In this document: positions 531 to 24,406 of the stretch, one piece after another | Numbering within the stretch: the stretch's first letter is position 1 | How the letters are laid out: the number at the start of each line of letters is the position of its first letter | Virus record (IMG/VR): IMGVR_UViG_2534681993_000012 | Strand: one strand, 5' to 3' | Source of the DNA: a virus | Lineage: Duplodnaviria > Heunggongvirae > Uroviricota > Caudoviricetes | Length of the DNA stretch: 26,398 nucleotides | Notes under the pieces: generated by a model | Database searches by the model: none | Told to the model about the DNA's origin: nothing | The model's input: the letters and a program-made list of their open reading frames with translations, nothing else | Position numbers and translations under genes: made by a program

Positions 531-562
531 GGTACTATTACCACAACGGTAACTATTACCAC
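531..562 (+). promoter_or_regulatory. tandem direct repeats GGTA(A)CTATTACCAC x2 immediately upstream of terS; candidate late-promoter activator or packaging-recognition site
   Basis: 531-544 GGTACTATTACCAC and 548-562 GGTAACTATTACCAC. The second copy runs into the palindrome ACCACGGTGGT and the terS ribosome-binding site. Confidence 0.45.
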
Positions 563-2635: not shown

Positions 2636-3460
2636 TTACTTTTGTGTTTTTGATTTTCTTTGATAGGTGGAATTTAAATCACCATTTATATTTACTAGAG
2701 GATTATTCAATAATGTACTGATTTCTGGATTGTTAATTCCAGTAACGCCAAATTTCTTTACGGACTCATTAAGGTCTTGTAATGATTTTAGACCTACAAA
2801 CCCATTAGCAATTGTATTATTTGTTGCCAAAGGAATGTTTTCCTTATAGGACTCATATTCGTTTTTTAAATTTTTGTGAGCTTTTTCTAGATTTTCTAGT
2901 TTAGATGTTGTTTCATCAATAACCTTAGATAATTCTAAAATACGAGCTTGTGCTGCGCGCAGTTCTGTCTCCCTCTCTTTCAATTCAGATGTGAGTTGTC
3001 CCATTCTGTCTTTTGAAAGAATTATTTCCTCTTTCATGTCTTGAATGTTTTTTTCAGCGCCTGTTTTTACTTTTTCGTAAGTAATGTCTTTTTTAGCCAG
3101 CAATCTCTGTAGCCGTGTTTCACGTTGTATTTTTCTTGCCTTCCGGTGGTTTTCGATTGAGTCATTATTATCAAGAGGTTTTGCTTGCCATACGTTAATG
3201 ATATTGTTTACCCATGGTAATAGGCAGCAGATAGTAATTACAGATAAGCATGGATAAAACATAACAGTTTTCCATGTGCTGTTATCTGAGATGTATGAAA
3301 TTTTATCTATTATATTTGATTTGCTAAAAAACAGATAAAGAAGTGATTTCCAGTTGAAGGCGCACCAGGACATAACAAAAGCACCAAGCACAGGGTTTTT
3401 GGCTCTATGCACGGCAGTGTTTGCAGTAGATAAAAACAGCTCTTTGAACGATTCAAACAT
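2636..3460 (-). CDS. accessory (moron) membrane protein: two predicted N-terminal TM helices, long coiled-coil, C-terminal globular domain; function unknown (candidate superinfection-exclusion or abortive-infection protein)
   Basis: ORF track 2636..3556; preferred start ATG at 3460 (MFESFKELF...) with AAGGT Shine-Dalgarno, downstream of a TATAAT -10. Hydrophobic segments NPVLGAFVMSWCAFNWKSLLYLFF and VMFYPCLSVITICCLLPWVNNIINVW, then a heptad-rich KE/RL region. Visibly AT-rich relative to the flanking terminase and portal genes. Confidence 0.65.
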   Translation of the reverse strand: MFESFKELFLSTANTAVHRAKNPVLGAFVMSWCAFNWKSLLYLFFSKSNIIDKISYISDNSTWKTVMFYPCLSVITICCLLPWVNNIINVWQAKPLDNNDSIENHRKARKIQRETRLQRLLAKKDITYEKVKTGAEKNIQDMKEEIILSKDRMGQLTSELKERETELRAAQARILELSKVIDETTSKLENLEKAHKNLKNEYESYKENIPLATNNTIANGFVGLKSLQDLNESVKKFGVTGINNPEISTLLNNPLVNINGDLNSTYQRKSKTQK

Positions 3461-3485
3461 ACTAATTACCTTAAAGTTTTTCATG

Positions 3486-3514
3486 ATTATACCTTTAAGG
3501 TAATTTGTGGTCAT
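3486..3514 (-). promoter_or_regulatory. sigma70-like promoter with embedded operator dyad for the membrane-protein gene
   Basis: Minus strand: -35 ATGACC (3514-3509), 17-bp spacer, -10 TATAAT (3491-3486). The dyad aTACCT-TTA-AGGTAA (3489-3503) lies in the spacer and overlaps the -10. Confidence 0.5.
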
Positions 3515-3545: not shown

Positions 3546-3620
3546 ACTGGAAGCAATGAGTTATGCCTTCCGTGGCTGTACTGGTTTACAGCATGAAGTC
3601 ATCGCAATGGCGTCCTGCTG

Positions 3621-3663
3621 TAAAAAGGGCGGTGATAGTCCTTCAAGGGAAACTATCACCGCC
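3621..3663 (-). terminator. intrinsic terminator downstream of the tRNA (minus strand only)
   Basis: 12-bp stem GGCGGTGATAGT/ACTATCACCGCC with 12-nt loop, followed on the minus strand by CTTTTTA. Confidence 0.55.
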
Positions 3664-3706
3664 AAGCACCTGGAACTTCTGGCATCACGGTCCTTAGGCG
3701 TGATTC

Positions 3707-3783
3707 TGGCGTGGCATGCAGGATTCGAACCTGCGACCAACCGCTTAGAAGGCGGTTGCTCTGTCCAACTGAGCTAATGCCAC
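3707..3783 (-). tRNA. tRNA-Arg (anticodon UCU, decodes AGA); phage-borne
   Basis: Minus strand folds as a 77-nt cloverleaf: acceptor GTGGCAT/ATGCCAC, D-arm GCTC...GAGC, anticodon stem ACCGC/GCGGT with loop CTTCTAA (U33-UCU-A37), T-arm GCAGG-TTCGAAT-CCTGC, discriminator G and encoded CCA. Resembles but differs from host argU as I recall it. Confidence 0.85.
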
Positions 3784-4106
3784 AACACTGAGAGCACTTA
3801 GCCTGTTAAGTGCGCCACACTTTGTCGCGGCTCCATAAATGCTCTCATCGTTGTACCCTCGTCTCTTCCGAGGCGTCACACCGAATCGCCGGGATGGTGA
3901 ATCCCCGTGCGCGGAATAAAACCGCTCGACTTGCACATTCCGGCTACCTGGTTCGTTTGCCCGAGCAAGGGAGGGTGCCCCTTAAACGTATCCAGACCGC
4001 TATCGGCGCATGTGCCATACGCCGTACTGCTCAAAATAAAAGCTCACTCCACCTGTTCAATTTAACGATAAGCCAGTCAGGTTAATAACCGGAATGAACA
4101 CTTTAC

Positions 4107-4121
4107 TTACCTGAAAGGTAA
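4107..4121. promoter_or_regulatory. operator-like dyad TTACCT-GAA-AGGTAA (perfect arms)
   Basis: Perfect 6-3-6 inverted repeat. Lies about 320 bp 5' of the tRNA on the minus strand and about 90 bp upstream of the + strand 68-aa gene; the target promoter is ambiguous. Confidence 0.55.
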
Positions 4122-20005: not shown

Positions 20006-20205
20006 TAGGTGACCTTTATGTTCAAGAAGATGATCAACAGATTAATCGGTGGTAAGGAGGTTAGCAATAAAATTCAACCTCTTATCTTTAAGGATAACTT
20101 TTCAGCTTTTGAGTATGCGTGTAAGTATCTTGACACAAGCCTTTCAGCCAATAAACCAATGCCAGCCATCATCATACCTGGTCCAAGTGGGGAACAGCCA
20201 GTTTT

Positions 20206-20210
20206 GCTAG
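20206..20210. repeat. IS2 target-site duplication (GCTAG), left copy
   Basis: The same 5-mer directly flanks both IS2 ends. Confidence 0.8.
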
Positions 20211-20221
20211 TGGATTTGCCC

Positions 20222-21127
20222 CTATATTTCCAGACACCTGTTATCACTTAACCCATTACTGGCTTGCTGCCGTAGATATTCCCGTGGCGAGCGATAACCC
20301 AGTGCACTATGCGGATGCCATTCGTTATAATGCTCGAACGCCTCTGCAAGGTTCTTTGCTGCCGTTAACCCGTCTGGTTTGGGCATGACACTGATGTAGT
20401 CACGCTTTATCGTTTTCACGAAGCTCTCTGCTATGCCGTTACTCTCCGGACTCCGCACCGCCGTGCTCTTCGGTTCAAGCCCCAACATCCGGGCAAACTG
20501 CCGTGTTTCATTAGCCCGGTAGCATGAACCATTATCCGTCAGCCACTCTACTGGAGACGCCGGAAGCTCGTTGCCGAAGCGGCGTTCCACCGCTCCCAGC
20601 ATGACGTCCTGTACTGTTTCACTGTTGAAGCCGCCCGTAGTGACCGCCCAGTGCAGTGCCTCACGGTCACAGCAGTCCAGCGCGAACGTGACTCGCAGTT
20701 TTTCTCCGTTATCACAGCGGAACTCGAACCCGTCAGAGCACCATCGCTGATTACTTTCTTTCACAGCCACTCTGCCTGTATGTGCCCGTTTCGATGGCGG
20801 TACAGCAGGTTTTCGCTCAAGCAACAGCGCATTCTGGCGCATGATCCGGTAAACACGTTTGGCATTGATCGCAGGCATACCATCAAGTTCTGCCTGTCTG
20901 CGAAGCAGCGCCCATACCCGACGATAACCATACGTGGGCAGCTCTCCGATAACATGGTGTATACGGAGAAGCACATCCGTATCATCAGTGTGACGACTGC
21001 GGCGGCCATCCATCCAGTCATCGGTTCGTCTGAGAATGACGTGCAACTGCGCACGCGACACCCGGAGACAACGGCTGACTAAGCTTACTCCCCATCCCCG
21101 GGCAATAAGGGCGCGTGCGCTATCCAC
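20222..21127 (-). CDS. insD: IS2 transposase OrfB (InsD)
   Basis: 301-aa translation [23 protein letters not shown]... recognised as IS2 InsD. Overlaps insC in the -1 frame with slippery CAAAAAAG at 21127-21134 (programmed frameshift typical of the IS3 family). Confidence 0.9.
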
Positions 21128-21450
21128 TTTTTTGCCCGTCCATATTCAACGGCTTCTTTGAGGAGTTCATTTTCCATCGTTTTCTTGCCGAGCAGGCGCT
21201 GGAGTTCTTTAATCTGCTTCATGGCGGCAGCAAGTTCAGAGGCAGGAACAACCTGTTCTCCGGCGGCGACAGCAGTAAGACTTCCTTCCTGGTATTGCTT
21301 ACGCCAGAGAAATAACTGGCTGGCTGCTACACCATGTTGCCGGGCAACGAGGGAGACCGTCATCCCTGGTTCAAAGCTCTGCTGAACAATTGCGATCTTT
21401 TCCTGTGTGGTACGCCGTCTGCGTTTCTCCGGTCCTAAGACATCAATCAT
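21085..21450 (-). CDS. insC: IS2 OrfA (InsC), HTH protein
   Basis: [25 protein letters not shown]...; ATG 21450 follows GGAGA. The ORF-track extension to 21495 lacks a ribosome-binding site. Confidence 0.85.
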
Positions 21451-21541
21451 CTGCTCTCCAATGACTAGTCTAAAAACTAGTATTAAGACTATCACTTAAA
21501 TAAGTGATACTGGTTGTCTGGAGATTCAGGGGGCCAGTCTA

Positions 21542-21546
21542 GCTAG
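21542..21546. repeat. IS2 target-site duplication (GCTAG), right copy
   Basis: See left copy. Confidence 0.8.
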
Positions 21547-21800
21547 ATTCTGGAAGACAAAGGGCAATGCTGAAGGTGTGCTCAGCTGATGGTGGATTTT
21601 TTGTTATTGCCGATTCATCTTACAGCAAAGGACCAAAGCTGAGGATTGGTGATCTTGTTGCTTGGTTGCCTGTGAGTTATGCCGAAGAATTAACGGATAA
21701 AATAGAAGATCCTCGCTCCGCTATGGTTGGCTTTATATTGGGAACCATTCATCCTGAACTAACATCTACTGGCTGGAAGGGTAAAGAAAGATTTCGCAAG

Positions 21801-21816
21801 TAGCGTGACATGTCAC
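21801..21816. repeat. 16-bp motif TAGCGTGACATGTCAC (copy 2 of 2)
   Basis: Exact repeat of 444-459; here its first 3 nt are the stop codon of the IS2-disrupted gene and it is followed at once by a terminator. Confidence 0.7.
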
Positions 21817-21841
21817 AGGCCGCTTTCGCGGCCTTGTTTTT
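21817..21841 (+). terminator. intrinsic terminator
   Basis: AGGCCGC-TTTC-GCGGCCT followed by TGTTTTT. Confidence 0.6.
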
Positions 21842-22001
21842 AACGAATGCCACCGCCGCCCGGGCGGGAATCCGCAGAACGCCCACCGCAGCGGGAGCCG
21901 TCAGCGGCAGTATCGCTGTCGTGCTGACAACGACCGGCAAAGGCCTGAGTTGAAGCTACCAGAGACAACAAAACGAACAGTGCAGCAAATGCTTTTTTCA
22001 T
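21840..22001 (-). CDS. small secreted peptide (53-aa precursor; about 31-aa mature, Gly/Arg/Asp/Ser-rich with 2 Cys)
   Basis: ORF track 21840..22073; the internal start MKKAFAALFVLLSLVASTQAFA gives a canonical Sec signal peptide with AFA cleavage motif. GC-rich, unlike its neighbours. Confidence 0.45.
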   Translation of the reverse strand: MKKAFAALFVLLSLVASTQAFAGRCQHDSDTAADGSRCGGRSADSRPGGGGIR

Positions 22002-22014
22002 TGTGACATTTCCA

Positions 22015-22042
22015 TCTATAAGCCACCTCAATGTGGCGTCAA
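22015..22042 (-). promoter_or_regulatory. candidate sigma70 promoter of the small-peptide gene
   Basis: Minus strand: -35 TTGACG (22042-22037), 16-bp spacer, -10 TATAGA (22020-22015). Confidence 0.35.
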
Positions 22043-22082
22043 TGAGTGTAGCACTGACTTTTGTTTCGTCCATAAAAAACTA

Positions 22083-22595
22083 CTATGCAGGCTTTTTGGA
22101 TTTGTACGAATAATCCCACGGATAAACATTTCTACTAAGTGGGGCTGTATTCGTTCGTTCATGAAATAATTTTGTGAAATTCAATACGGAATCCATCCAA
22201 ACTTTTGCGTTAGCTTTGGTGTGTGCGGGCGGGTCCCAATAAGCTAGTAAGGCTGCATCTCTTATTTCATTGACTGCATATATGAGATATGCGTTACTGG
22301 TTGGTTTTGGCCTGTAATTTCCTTGTTCATCAATCAATCCATATGACCACTCATCCCAACACTGTTCAGTACATGAGTATGAATATGATGCATATTCACC
22401 AATATTGACATGAACCTTTCTGAGATGGAAGCCTAATACTTCGTCTGGTCTTTCAAAAAGAGTATCTTTTCCCAGATCAGGATGATGACCATGACGCCAG
22501 TGTTGTTTAAAAGCATCTTTTAGCGAAATCAGAAAGTCATCAGTTTTAAACTCACCAGTAGGTATAACCTTCCCGCTATACTCACTCAAAAACAT
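22083..22595 (-). CDS. uncharacterised protein (170 aa), distal gene of a two-gene operon; His/Cys-rich segments (HWRHGHHP, CTEQCWDEW)
   Basis: ATG 22595 follows GAGGAA; the start overlaps the last 14 nt of the upstream gene (translational coupling). No family recognised by eye. Confidence 0.6.
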   Translation of the reverse strand: MFLSEYSGKVIPTGEFKTDDFLISLKDAFKQHWRHGHHPDLGKDTLFERPDEVLGFHLRKVHVNIGEYASYSYSCTEQCWDEWSYGLIDEQGNYRPKPTSNAYLIYAVNEIRDAALLAYWDPPAHTKANAKVWMDSVLNFTKLFHERTNTAPLSRNVYPWDYSYKSKKPA

Positions 22596-22908
22596 CGAAT
22601 TCCTCTTCCTTCATATGCGTTTCTAATGAGTTAAGCTGGCGGAAAGATATCTCTTTTGATTCTGCAGATGAGAGCTTTTTTATCCGCTTTATATTCTTTG
22701 TGATAGGAATAGACATTGTATGCACATCAGCGGATGCTCTTGGCTTTGTGCTGATAAAAATATGGCGCAATGCCGCATTTTCACTATTGAACGAGCCAAT
22801 AGCTGATTTACGTGCTACAACCTTACCAGTAAAAATACGACTCTTGCTACGCTTTGCATGAGTTCCGCTTCTTACCGGACCTCTCATCACGAATCCAAGT
22901 TTTGTCAT
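22582..22908 (-). CDS. uncharacterised basic protein (108 aa), proximal gene of the two-gene operon
   Basis: ATG 22908 follows GGAGA (7-nt spacer); Lys/Arg-rich N-terminal half, acidic C-terminus; operator dyad 43-57 bp upstream. Confidence 0.6.
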   Translation of the reverse strand: MTKLGFVMRGPVRSGTHAKRSKSRIFTGKVVARKSAIGSFNSENAALRHIFISTKPRASADVHTMSIPITKNIKRIKKLSSAESKEISFRQLNSLETHMKEEEFDVFE

Positions 22909-22950
22909 CTTTAATCTCCGGTAAGTTACAGGTATAAAATAAAAACAGGT

Positions 22951-22965
22951 TTACCTTTAAGGTAA
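22951..22965. promoter_or_regulatory. operator-like dyad TTACCT-TTA-AGGTAA (perfect arms) upstream of the 108/170 operon
   Basis: Perfect 6-3-6 inverted repeat in the 5' region of the minus-strand operon. Confidence 0.6.
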
Positions 22966-23031
22966 TATTACGCGAATCTACATCACATCGCCAATGATTA
23001 TTTTAAAGGCACATCCCTGTGCCGCCGCCCG

Positions 23032-23742
23032 TCAGAAGAACCCAGCCTTGTCGTTGATGTACTCCGCGTGGGTCTGGATATCACGCAGGCATTTGCTCAC
23101 ACCGACGATGTAGCAGAACATGGTGGTCAGCTCCGCCGCCGCGCCCGATACGTCGTGCCCGTCTTCCTGTAACTGGTTCAGCAGATTCATCAGCAGTGAG
23201 TGCTCCGTCAGGCCGAGAACACCAGACGGCGAATGAATCAGGCTACGGTAGCCGGGCTTCAGTGGGGCACTGTAGGTTTTGTTCTCTATCTTCATTGCCT
23301 GCATTACTGCTGACGCCGTGGCGTTGGCTACCTGGTCGGCAACCATCTTTATGCGTTCTTCCTGCGGTAGCGAGTTTTTAATGTAACTTCCGGTGCGGCG
23401 GATCTGAGGAAGAACCTCACCTGTAACCCATTTACGAAAGCGGTAGGGGATAGTGCCTGGTGTCACCGCATCGCGGCAGCGGAGGATCAGTGTGTAGAGG
23501 CCTGACTCGGAGATGATGTTGATCTCTTTTACTCGGCTGTCAAAAATTGCACGATGTTCATGCCCTATGTTGAACATAGACCTTTCATCATCATCCAGTT
23601 TTTCAAGTGCTTGGGTGACGTTTTGGATACGCAGCGCACTACAAACGTCTTGGGCTACAAACCATGGTTGGCCATCGATAATGATGGAACGGATAGGGTT
23701 AACAGATTCAAATTTGAAGATGGCAGTTTGAGCATTAGCCAT
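23032..23742 (-). CDS. phage antirepressor, BRO-N family (N-terminal Bro-N DNA-binding domain plus C-terminal Ant-like domain)
   Basis: ORF track 23032..23757 (GTG); ATG 23742 follows GGAG. N-terminus FKFESVNPIRSIIIDGQPWFVAQDVCSALRIQN is a typical Bro-N signature; the C-terminal 80 aa are homologous to the ORF at 24058-24315. Confidence 0.85.
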   Translation of the reverse strand: MANAQTAIFKFESVNPIRSIIIDGQPWFVAQDVCSALRIQNVTQALEKLDDDERSMFNIGHEHRAIFDSRVKEINIISESGLYTLILRCRDAVTPGTIPYRFRKWVTGEVLPQIRRTGSYIKNSLPQEERIKMVADQVANATASAVMQAMKIENKTYSAPLKPGYRSLIHSPSGVLGLTEHSLLMNLLNQLQEDGHDVSGAAAELTTMFCYIVGVSKCLRDIQTHAEYINDKAGFF

Positions 23743-23770
23743 GGTGGTTATCTCCACTTAGTGATTTTAA

Positions 23771-23990: not shown

Positions 23991-24044
23991 CAAGAGGAGT
24001 GCGATGTAAATTTACCGCAAAGGTAAATATAAGCACTCCTCTTG
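23991..24044. promoter_or_regulatory. nested palindrome: 12-bp arms CAAGAGGAGTGC/GCACTCCTCTTG enclosing a 30-nt loop that carries the dyad TTACCg-CAA-AGGTAA (24012-24026)
   Basis: Perfect 12-bp inverted repeat, 14 nt downstream of the short paralogue's stop; the inner dyad matches the motif family with one arm mismatch. Confidence 0.5.
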
Positions 24045-24057
24045 GTAATTTCAAATC

Positions 24058-24315
24058 TTATCTGGTTTGTTTTCGTAATTGTTCGGCACAATAGTCGAGA
24101 TGTGTTTGCAGATCCCGCATAGACATCTGTGAGCTGGTGACGTAGTTAATCAGTGCAGTCAGTTCGGCAAGTGGGCCATCGACATTAAATCCATCCTTAT
24201 CGAGATCCCGGAGTAATTTCATCAAGTGCGATCCCTCCACCAGTGACCTGACGCCTCCCGGCGTGTGAATCCTTTCGGTAAATCCGTCTTCCAGTGGATA
24301 GTGATACTGCTGCAT
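24058..24315 (-). CDS. short antirepressor paralogue (85 aa) corresponding to the C-terminal domain of the adjacent BRO-N antirepressor; LexA-controlled
   Basis: ORF track 24058..24333 (TTG); ATG 24315 follows GGAGA (8-nt spacer). HTPGGVRSLVEGSHLMKLLRDLDKDGFNVDGPLAELTALINYVTSSQMSMRDLQTHLDY aligns with the antirepressor segment HSPSGVLGLTEHSLLMNLLNQLQEDGHDVSGAAAELTTMFCYIVGVSKCLRDIQTHAEY. Confidence 0.7.
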   Translation of the reverse strand: MQQYHYPLEDGFTERIHTPGGVRSLVEGSHLMKLLRDLDKDGFNVDGPLAELTALINYVTSSQMSMRDLQTHLDYCAEQLRKQTR

Positions 24316-24334
24316 CTTATCTTCTCCATGCAAT

Positions 24335-24391: not shown

Positions 24392-24406
24392 TCACCTGAA
24401 AGGTAA
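24392..24406. promoter_or_regulatory. operator-like dyad TcACCT-GAA-AGGTAA upstream of the LexA-controlled promoter
   Basis: 6-3-6 inverted repeat, one arm mismatch; lies in the divergent intergenic region between the short paralogue and the tailspike. Confidence 0.55.

Follow-up and report, generated by a model that had tools for sequence, protein, structure and literature searches.

The window analysed here is a 26,398 nt stretch of DNA (IMG/VR record IMGVR_UViG_2534681993_000012) that forms part of an epsilon15-like (Uetakevirus-type) Escherichia coli prophage. Two overlapping minus-strand genes in the window, which encode proteins of 108 and 170 aa, probably constitute a type II toxin-antitoxin (TA) cassette of the YafO family that is carried as exchangeable cargo (a moron) and controlled in trans by the phage, with the toxin neutralised via the tail of the partner protein. 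The pair would join a known toxin family to a new antitoxin family in an unusual regulatory setting. A preliminary description made from the letters of the sequence had guessed at a TA module, and the guess is supported by the homology of the 170 aa protein to YafO, its predicted RelE-type fold, the conserved pairing of the two genes and the modular, antitoxin-like organisation of the partner. Its account of the layout was also accurate, as coordinates, sequence and G+C content place two minus-strand genes with a 14 nt overlap and strong ribosome-binding sites in an AT-rich island between an antirepressor gene and a gene for a small secreted peptide (Table 1). The G+C content is 0.38–0.42 over 22000–22900 and 0.49–0.57 to either side. 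The Shine-Dalgarno sequence of the 108 aa gene is GGAG (22919–22916), 7 nt 5' of the ATG at 22908, and that of the 170 aa gene is GAGGA (22605–22601), 5 nt 5' of the ATG at 22595. At the junction the first gene ends GAT GTT TTT GAG TGA and the second begins ATG TTT TTG AGT GA, a geometry that is consistent with translational coupling.

The 170 aa protein is already named 'type II toxin-antitoxin system YafO family toxin' by RefSeq/PGAP (WP_000479990.1), and its PHROGs family, phrog_1651, is listed as unknown function. When the protein alone was compared with Pfam YafO_toxin (PF13957), the match had an E value of 9.5e-4 and covered profile positions 7–100 of 101. Gathering its relatives yielded a small Enterobacterales family with lengths of 166–175 aa and identities of 40–99%, and 23 of 24 members matched YafO_toxin, the best with an E value of 5.5e-8. 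HHalign comparison of the 24-member profile with an alignment of six sequences (YafO from E. coli K-12 and five plasmid-borne YafO-family toxins) gave a probability of 97.4% and an E value of 1e-11 over 109 columns, significance being reached only with this more diverse query profile and the six-sequence YafO alignment. On these profile matches, the 170 aa protein is assigned to the YafO family. Sub-threshold matches to a fucose lectin (NCBIfam, PDB) and to DUF1319 were gone when a profile was used. A literature search found no paper on the 170 aa subfamily or its accessions.

The 170 aa subfamily and YafO share the motifs G[KR]D..[FY]..P, VHV/HIH, TS[DN]..L[IV]Y and P.AH, and the invariant residues in common with canonical YafO are G42, K/R43, D44, H62, T99-S100, Y106 and A124-H125. 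Relative to K-12 YafO, the subfamily has an additional insertion of ~35 residues (about residues 64–98), a C-terminal extension and an invariant HWRxGHH motif that K-12 YafO does not have. A RelE/HigB-type fold was predicted for the 170 aa protein. Metal binding through its HWRHGHHP and C-x3-C segments had been suggested in the preliminary description. In the first, H32, W33, R34 and H38 are invariant in 24 relatives, but C-x3-C is not conserved, as position 75 can hold S, G, A or T in relatives, which leaves C79 as its sole invariant Cys. The invariant residues of the subfamily include H32, H38, H62, C79 and H125. Of these, H62 and H125 have His counterparts in canonical YafO, for which a catalytic function is the simpler reading.

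To assess the pairing, we assembled 68 loci that carry relatives of the toxin (43 unique pairs), drawn from public assemblies, one species-representative genome and 44 IMG/VR viral contigs. A co-oriented upstream open reading frame (ORF) overlaps the toxin start at all 68 loci, which span several genomic contexts, so the neighbourhood check that the preliminary description had proposed came out in favour of a conserved pair. The overlap is 14 nt in most loci, 11 nt in the 168 aa subfamily and 4 nt in one locus, and the toxin ATG sits within the F/Y-D codons of the partner. The pair also moves as a unit between genomic contexts. The version found in Salmonella and Enterobacter occurs in epsilon15-like prophages, in the immI region of P22-like phages beside arc and ant, and in integrase/AlpA islands beside a Rap1a gene. 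A scan of species-representative genomes found a single locus with the 170 aa family, which is accessory and mostly absent from such genomes.

The partners range from 65 to about 175 aa and none contains a Pfam domain, but all end in one tail of ~34 residues that is in register from the C-terminus. The tail motif is roughly PR[VI]xK[MLI]SxxE[AS]xx[LI]Sxx[ML]…[ML]xEEx[FY]DxxE. When a profile hidden Markov model (HMM) built only from partners outside the 108 aa family was searched against 2587 ORFs, it retrieved the tail of the window protein (E 6e-5) and a Salmonella tail (E 2.4e-8), and the best decoy had an E value of 2.7. As the 108 aa family was excluded from the model, this similarity is not circular. 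In the reverse search, the other partner types ranked above every decoy. Across four bins of falling toxin identity, mean tail identity was 0.95, 0.60, 0.29 and 0.24 and mean identity of the N-terminal regions was 0.56, 0.26, 0.18 and 0.15, a comparison that leaves out the last five residues (dual-coded with the toxin start) and is descriptive, the sequences being non-independent. Tails at least 70% identical were joined to N-terminal regions less than 25% identical in 26 comparisons. As read from these alignments, the partner tail co-varies with the toxin subfamily and the N-terminal parts are swapped. A toxin-specific neutralising segment with exchangeable N-terminal parts would be the pattern expected of a type II antitoxin, and we propose that the tail helix is the toxin-binding, neutralising element.

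Only 11 members of the 108 aa family, all 89–116 aa long, emerged when 1.84 billion representative proteins were searched in full with an HMMER profile. The conserved parts are the N-terminus (MTKLGFVMRG and a basic, K/R-rich stretch) and the last ~30 residues; the middle is variable. No Pfam, NCBIfam, PADLOC or PDB match was found for the 108 aa protein, so the earlier statement that neither protein resembles any family stands for this one, but not for the YafO-like 170 aa protein, which PGAP had already labelled. The profile and structure searches that had been suggested were likewise productive in part: profiles linked the 170 aa protein to YafO, but Foldseek gave nothing significant and the 108 aa protein had no profile match beyond the 11 representatives of its family and the shared partner tail. 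A single-sequence PDB match of the 108 aa protein to ribosomal protein L18 (E 0.21) vanished with the family profile and is ascribed to chance. The AlphaFold2 model is of low confidence (pLDDT 59.7), with residues 1–34 disordered and a weak beta-meander; the one better-supported element is a helix at residues 81–106 (pLDDT 73–87).

A perfect copy of a dyad, TTACCTTAAAGGTAA, does lie 5' of the pair, as had been noted, and it ends 43 nt upstream of the ATG of the 108 aa gene. However, it had been taken as an MqsA-like operator and a hallmark of the pair, and this was not upheld. The dyad is a general operator of epsilon15-like phages and most probably not the pair's own site. If up to two mismatches are allowed, the window holds 9 copies of the dyad pattern, where 0.23 would be expected. 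TACC-N5-GGTA was counted 5 times in the window, 10 in phage phiV10, 11 in phage HEMP4 and 11 in the NZ_CP074756 prophage, against 0.4–0.7 expected; the last of these carries an identical cassette, and the count in its 6 kb host flank is zero. The longer form, TTACC-N5-GGTAA, is present in 10–11 copies per ~40 kb epsilon15-like phage genome (about 0.7 expected), including 10 copies in phiV10, in which blastn and tblastn found no YafO-like pair. TTACC/GGTAA is the conserved core of the operator, and the sixth position is variable (TTACCG, TTACCC and TTACCA occur), so the ACCT-N3-AGGT reading that suggested MqsA is incidental. The MqsA operator has the consensus ACCT-N(2-4)-AGGT and is bound by a zinc-ribbon and helix-turn-helix (HTH)-Xre antitoxin encoded in the operon, and neither protein of the pair matches an HTH or MqsA family in Pfam or NCBIfam. 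A literature search found no description of the epsilon15-type operator.

In both phiV10 and the cassette-bearing prophage, two dyads 62 bp apart lie just left of the HTH repressor gene, one lies between the repressor gene and the divergent rightward gene, and others follow terminators ahead of the next early genes (including a further 62 bp pair) or precede int, the structural operon and the antirepressor gene. Dyads are often paired exactly 62 bp apart, bracketing a promoter, and some precede cargo genes. The layout at readable promoters is dyad, ~20 nt, -35, 16–17 nt, -10, dyad; examples from phiV10 are TTGACA-16-TAATTA and TTGATT-17-TTTAAT. The antirepressor promoter in the window, TTGAAA-17-TATATT (10/12 matches), has a dyad directly after it. 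At the pair, the dyad abuts and overlaps the -10 of a candidate promoter and covers the expected transcription start, and we assign this promoter tentatively to the pair because its geometry equals that of the antirepressor and phiV10 early promoters. The overall arrangement looks like a global silencing network, and from the positions of the dyads we infer that they are bound by the phage HTH repressor (WP_000836290.1-like) or a Cro-like counterpart. Partners with unrelated N-termini stand behind the same type of dyad. It is missing at 11 of the 68 loci, including all non-epsilon15-type contexts examined except three (L003–L005), to which it travelled with the pair and a fragment of the antirepressor 3'-end. 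As that fragment came too, the dyad at these three loci is a hitch-hiker.

The reading we favour is therefore of a TA cassette wired into the phage's own circuit. The 170 aa protein, a RelE-fold enzyme of the YafO family, would bind ribosomes, cut mRNA and halt translation, and the 108 aa antitoxin, predicted to be largely disordered, would neutralise it by wrapping its C-terminal helix (residues ~75–108) around it. Through the 14 nt overlap, the toxin would be translated in a manner coupled to the antitoxin. The pair would be transcribed from the candidate promoter, over whose -10 and start site a copy of the general phage operator lies, and its expression would depend in trans on the regulator that governs the antirepressor and early promoters of the phage, and not on the antitoxin; we favour trans control over autoregulation because the antitoxin shows no DNA-binding domain. 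RNase activity and toxicity, neutralisation by the tail, a labile antitoxin, which protein binds the operator and what purpose the pair serves are all inferred; the purpose could be prophage maintenance, exclusion of other phages or a part played during induction. If the lysogenic repressor occupies the operator, the pair would be expressed together with the antirepressor and early genes, which hints, with low confidence, that it acts during induction or infection more than in classical addiction.

Several observations weigh against this reading. The 170 aa protein scores 19.7 bits against YafO_toxin, below the Pfam gathering cut-off of 25, and neither BLASTP nor hhalign gave a significant match when the protein or a 12-sequence profile was compared with K-12 YafO alone. 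The best Foldseek match in the PDB, to HigB2, had an E value of 0.38, and nothing in BFVD was significant. The 108 aa protein has no detectable similarity to YafN or any antitoxin family, and no DNA-binding domain, whether HTH, ribbon-helix-helix (RHH) or AbrB, was detected in it using Pfam, NCBIfam, a PDB profile search and the low-confidence AlphaFold2 model. Some bona fide antitoxins, such as PaaA2, lack a DNA-binding domain. Part of the conservation of the tail reflects dual coding with the toxin start, which constrains its last ~5 residues. The candidate promoter of the pair is a weak match to the consensus (8/12) that falls under the scan threshold. Finally, if it is the lysogenic repressor that occupies the operator, a stable lysogen would not express the pair, a poor fit with classical addiction.

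The same parts could serve in the lytic cycle or against other phages. The pair would then be derepressed on infection or induction with the antirepressor and early genes, or leaky in the lysogen, and the RNase would shut down translation of the host or of a competitor phage (abortive infection or superinfection exclusion). This concerns the role of the pair and is compatible with the TA mechanism. In its favour, the operator is arranged exactly as at the antirepressor and early promoters, sister phages have other two-gene cassettes at this cargo hot spot, and prophage-borne TA modules that act in phage exclusion are well known. However, the defence models of PADLOC-DB 2.0 match neither protein at E ≤ 0.1, a result that also leaves the defence or counter-defence role raised in the preliminary description without support, and we consider a lytic-cycle or anti-phage role rather unlikely. 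It is improbable that there is no working TA system, with the 170 aa RelE-fold protein having lost nuclease activity or gained another target (ribosome binding only, or metal via H32/H37/H38) and the 108 aa protein being an unrelated co-translated factor. Although the insertion, C-terminal extension and HWRxGHH motif set the 170 aa protein apart from K-12 YafO and the partner has no known family, the motifs shared with canonical YafO are all kept and invariant, C-x3-C is not, and strict pairing, overlap and a co-varying tail are what would be predicted for a neutralising partner. Classical self-regulation, with the dyad serving as an MqsA-like operator for the 108 aa protein or for its complex with the toxin, is very improbable. 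In its favour, the dyad lies right over the candidate -10 and start of the pair and accompanies it into L003–L005, and the conserved basic N-terminus of the partner could contact nucleic acid. Against it, the dyad is also abundant in phiV10, which has no pair, and in HEMP4, where other cargo stands behind it. It borders the repressor gene and early promoters of the phage, stands ahead of partners whose N-termini are unrelated, is missing from all non-epsilon15-type contexts examined other than L003–L005, and differs in its core from the ACCT/AGGT of MqsA. The 108 aa protein also has no detectable HTH, RHH or AbrB domain.

Comparison with YafN-YafO of E. coli K-12 revealed both likenesses and differences. 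K-12 YafO inhibits translation by mRNA cleavage that needs ribosome binding or translation, and the upstream gene encodes the protein that neutralises it (PMC2814082, PMC7781912). The toxins are homologous, and in both systems the antitoxin gene precedes an adjacent, co-oriented toxin gene. However, yafN and yafO are separated by 2 nt, whereas the genes considered here overlap by 4–14 nt, and K-12 YafO is 132 aa while the toxin in the window is 170 aa, its insertion falling between core strands two and three. YafN is of the Phd/YefM type, but the 108 aa partner has no Phd/YefM domain and no detectable similarity to YafN, C-terminal region included; BLASTP yields no alignment. A YafN-like C-terminus apparent by eye (…DMTDDDFNDFKE against …HMKEEEFDVFE) had a score reached by 109 of 1000 shuffles, and the tail HMM did not match YafN even at an E value of 33. 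The K-12 genes lie in the dinB operon and are transcribed from a LexA-controlled promoter or their own, in contrast to the prophage cargo slot and phage operator of the pair described here.

Among other toxins, HigB2 of Vibrio cholerae (PDB 5mje/5jaa), HigB1, RelE, YafQ and YoeB share 8–18% sequence identity with the 170 aa protein, about 70 residues of which lie outside the core shared with HigB2/RelE-superfamily toxins. In higBA the gene order is reversed, with the toxin first (PMC2814082). YafO-family toxins on IncF plasmids of Klebsiella, Enterobacter and E. coli (for example WP_064152235.1 and WP_032414405.1) are, like the toxin in the window, preceded by a 'hypothetical protein' gene with a short overlap whose product is not YafN. 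Those partners are 175–182 aa, have hydrophobic N-termini and end in …AAKWL or …AAKWR without the tail motif of the 108 aa partner. The toxins on five such plasmid loci (L074–L078) are of canonical length, and their partners, with N-termini resembling signal peptides, form another unannotated partner family. As non-YafN partners are found with plasmid-borne YafO toxins, partner replacement is common in the YafO family. The PaaR2-PaaA2-ParE2 system of E. coli O157:H7 prophages comprises a RelE/ParE-superfamily toxin, a small, mostly disordered antitoxin without a DNA-binding domain, and a separate regulator. The pair resembles it in its prophage location, and would do so in having a largely disordered antitoxin with no recognisable DNA-binding domain and a separate transcription regulator. 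However, the regulator there is the third gene of the cassette, whereas here it would be the phage's general operator-binding protein; the toxins are ParE and YafO, respectively, and the antitoxins are unrelated in sequence.

These results provide a function-level reading for phrog_1651 and phrog_5933 (both 'unknown function') and for a RefSeq 'hypothetical protein'. They also supply a confident predicted RelE/HigB-type fold for a family without a solved structure: a RelE-superfamily fold was proposed for YafO from secondary-structure prediction (PMC2814082), and this placement has been questioned because the structure is unsolved (PMC7180214). The proposed new antitoxin family is defined by its tail motif, which could be used to annotate partners of YafO-like toxins, and knowledge of the epsilon15-type operator helps to map promoters and immunity circuitry in these phages. 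Current views are not overturned, as both partner swapping and the carriage of TA cassettes in prophage cargo slots are familiar. A more far-reaching interpretation, which we think unlikely, is of a TA module without self-regulation, with an antitoxin family built of a ~34-residue tail helix and exchanged, domain-less N-terminal regions, whose promoter is wired to the operator network such that a YafO-like RNase is switched by the lysis-lysogeny decision, kept off in the lysogen and released upon induction or infection. If true, this would make the pair a phage-timed device for translational shut-off or exclusion, and not an addiction module.

Table 1. Positions of the pair, its operator and neighbouring features (window coordinates unless another sequence is named)
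Feature	Position	Strand	Basis or remark
Candidate antitoxin gene, 108 aa	22582..22908	-	ORF; RefSeq WP_000163643.1 'hypothetical protein'; phrog_5933
Toxin gene, 170 aa, YafO family	22083..22595	-	ORF; WP_000479990.1; phrog_1651
14 nt overlap ATGTTTTTGAGTGA	22582..22595	-	read from sequence; toxin ATG within final codons of partner
C-terminal tail module IKKLSSAESKEISFRQLNSLETHMKEEEFDVFE, residues 75–108 of 108 aa protein	22585..22686	-	pattern common to partners of all toxin subfamilies
Operator dyad TTACCTTAAAGGTAA, 15-mer, 7+1+7 perfect palindrome	22951..22965	.	copy of TTACC-N5-GGTAA operator
Dyad TACCTTAAAGGTA	22952-22964	.	within the 15-mer
Candidate sigma-70 promoter of pair	22965..22994	-	-35 TTGGCG 22994-22989, 18 nt spacer, -10 TAATAT 22970-22965; read from sequence
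Dyads in window	539-551, 3490-3502, 4108-4120, 22952-22964, 24013-24025; degenerate copy 24393-24405
Dyads in phiV10 (L023)	88, 3253, 20498, 26871, 31954, 32016, 32728, 33113, 35071, 35133
Dyads in L079	6128-22884
Hairpin GGCACA-GGGA-TGTGCC then TTTAAAATAAT, 3' of antirepressor stop	23008..23023	-	read from sequence
Bro-N antirepressor gene, upstream neighbour of pair	23032..23757	-	Pfam E 1e-19
Small signal-peptide protein gene, 77 aa (RefSeq: 53 aa from internal Met)	21840..22073	-	phrog_14503 'membrane associated protein'
Hairpin, next terminator-like site downstream	21817-21834		terminator scan

Three complete E. coli genomes carry prophages that match the 1.3 kb stretch around the pair with 100% identity. 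These prophages are integrated beside guaA, and the genes near the pair in them encode terminase, portal, capsid, internal core proteins, tail spike, holins and endolysin. Among 5426 complete E. coli genomes, 69 (~1.3%) contain 80% or more of this 1.3 kb stretch. When the cassette was used to query the INPHARED phages and PLSDB plasmids with blastn, only the 41 bp promoter/dyad region was matched, in phage HEMP4; tblastn returned distant homologues in phages EC.W1-9 and TL-2011b and a few plasmids. A hairpin between the antirepressor gene and the pair is a possible terminator by its sequence, and it is absent from the output of the terminator scan. The signal-peptide protein gene begins 9 nt past the toxin stop and is probably co-transcribed with the pair. 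It is part of the phage backbone and lies outside the cassette, as the same gene follows different cargo in HEMP4 and in the E. coli epsilon15-like phages L015–L018.

Cargo varies at the slot between the antirepressor and secreted-peptide genes, which is a hot spot. In HEMP4 the antirepressor gene, promoter and dyad are the same, but a breakpoint lies immediately past the dyad and a different two-gene cargo follows (L021, 2861–3541), comprising a 55 aa ORF and a ~130–190 aa ORF with no Pfam match. In L015–L018 (1533–2334), the slot holds an unrelated 108 aa gene that overlaps a DUF2335 membrane-protein gene, and a distant YafO-like pair lies on the other side of the antirepressor gene in this group. 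Both cargoes look like further two-gene modules.

Other features of the window were also recorded. Overlapping IS3-family transposase ORFs of 136 and 301 aa (20222–21495; flanks 20018–21566) belong to an element that interrupts a 149 aa phage gene (WP_000473936.1 in an intact relative), of which 21567–21803 encodes only the last 78 residues, with 100% identity. The homology of a 91 aa ORF (24058–24333, minus strand) to the neighbouring antirepressor is confined to the C-terminal domain of the latter, and the ORF has no other homology (phrog_450, E 4e-48). A degenerate dyad of its own (24393–24405) lies upstream, and the ORF is conserved in phiV10 (p24) and epsilon15 (gp19). Between the terminase and portal operon there is a tRNA-Arg gene with anticodon TCT (3707–3783, minus strand; ARAGORN, and Rfam with 73 bits), around which ~0.5 kb (3560–4100) has no convincing ORFs and is bounded by two operator dyads. 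A gene at 2636–3484 (minus strand), with a dyad and a half-dyad right at its start, encodes a 282 aa coiled-coil protein with an N-terminal membrane segment (phrog_4780, unknown function), whose weak PADLOC matches to coiled-coil parts of LmuB, JetC and PD-Lambda-1 are probably compositional. As phiV10 and the NZ_CP074756 prophage have a gene for a Gp49 family protein or a Sf6 gene 66 homologue in its place, this position is another cargo slot.

Outside the epsilon15-like phages, a YafO-like pair in a Serratia fonticola island (L019/L020, 1322–2227) adjoins a SocA/Panacea-domain gene that has a 144 aa gene beside it, and several AlpA-type regulators are also present. The SocA/Panacea-domain gene and the 144 aa gene are likely a second TA system, which suggests that this small island accumulates TA modules.

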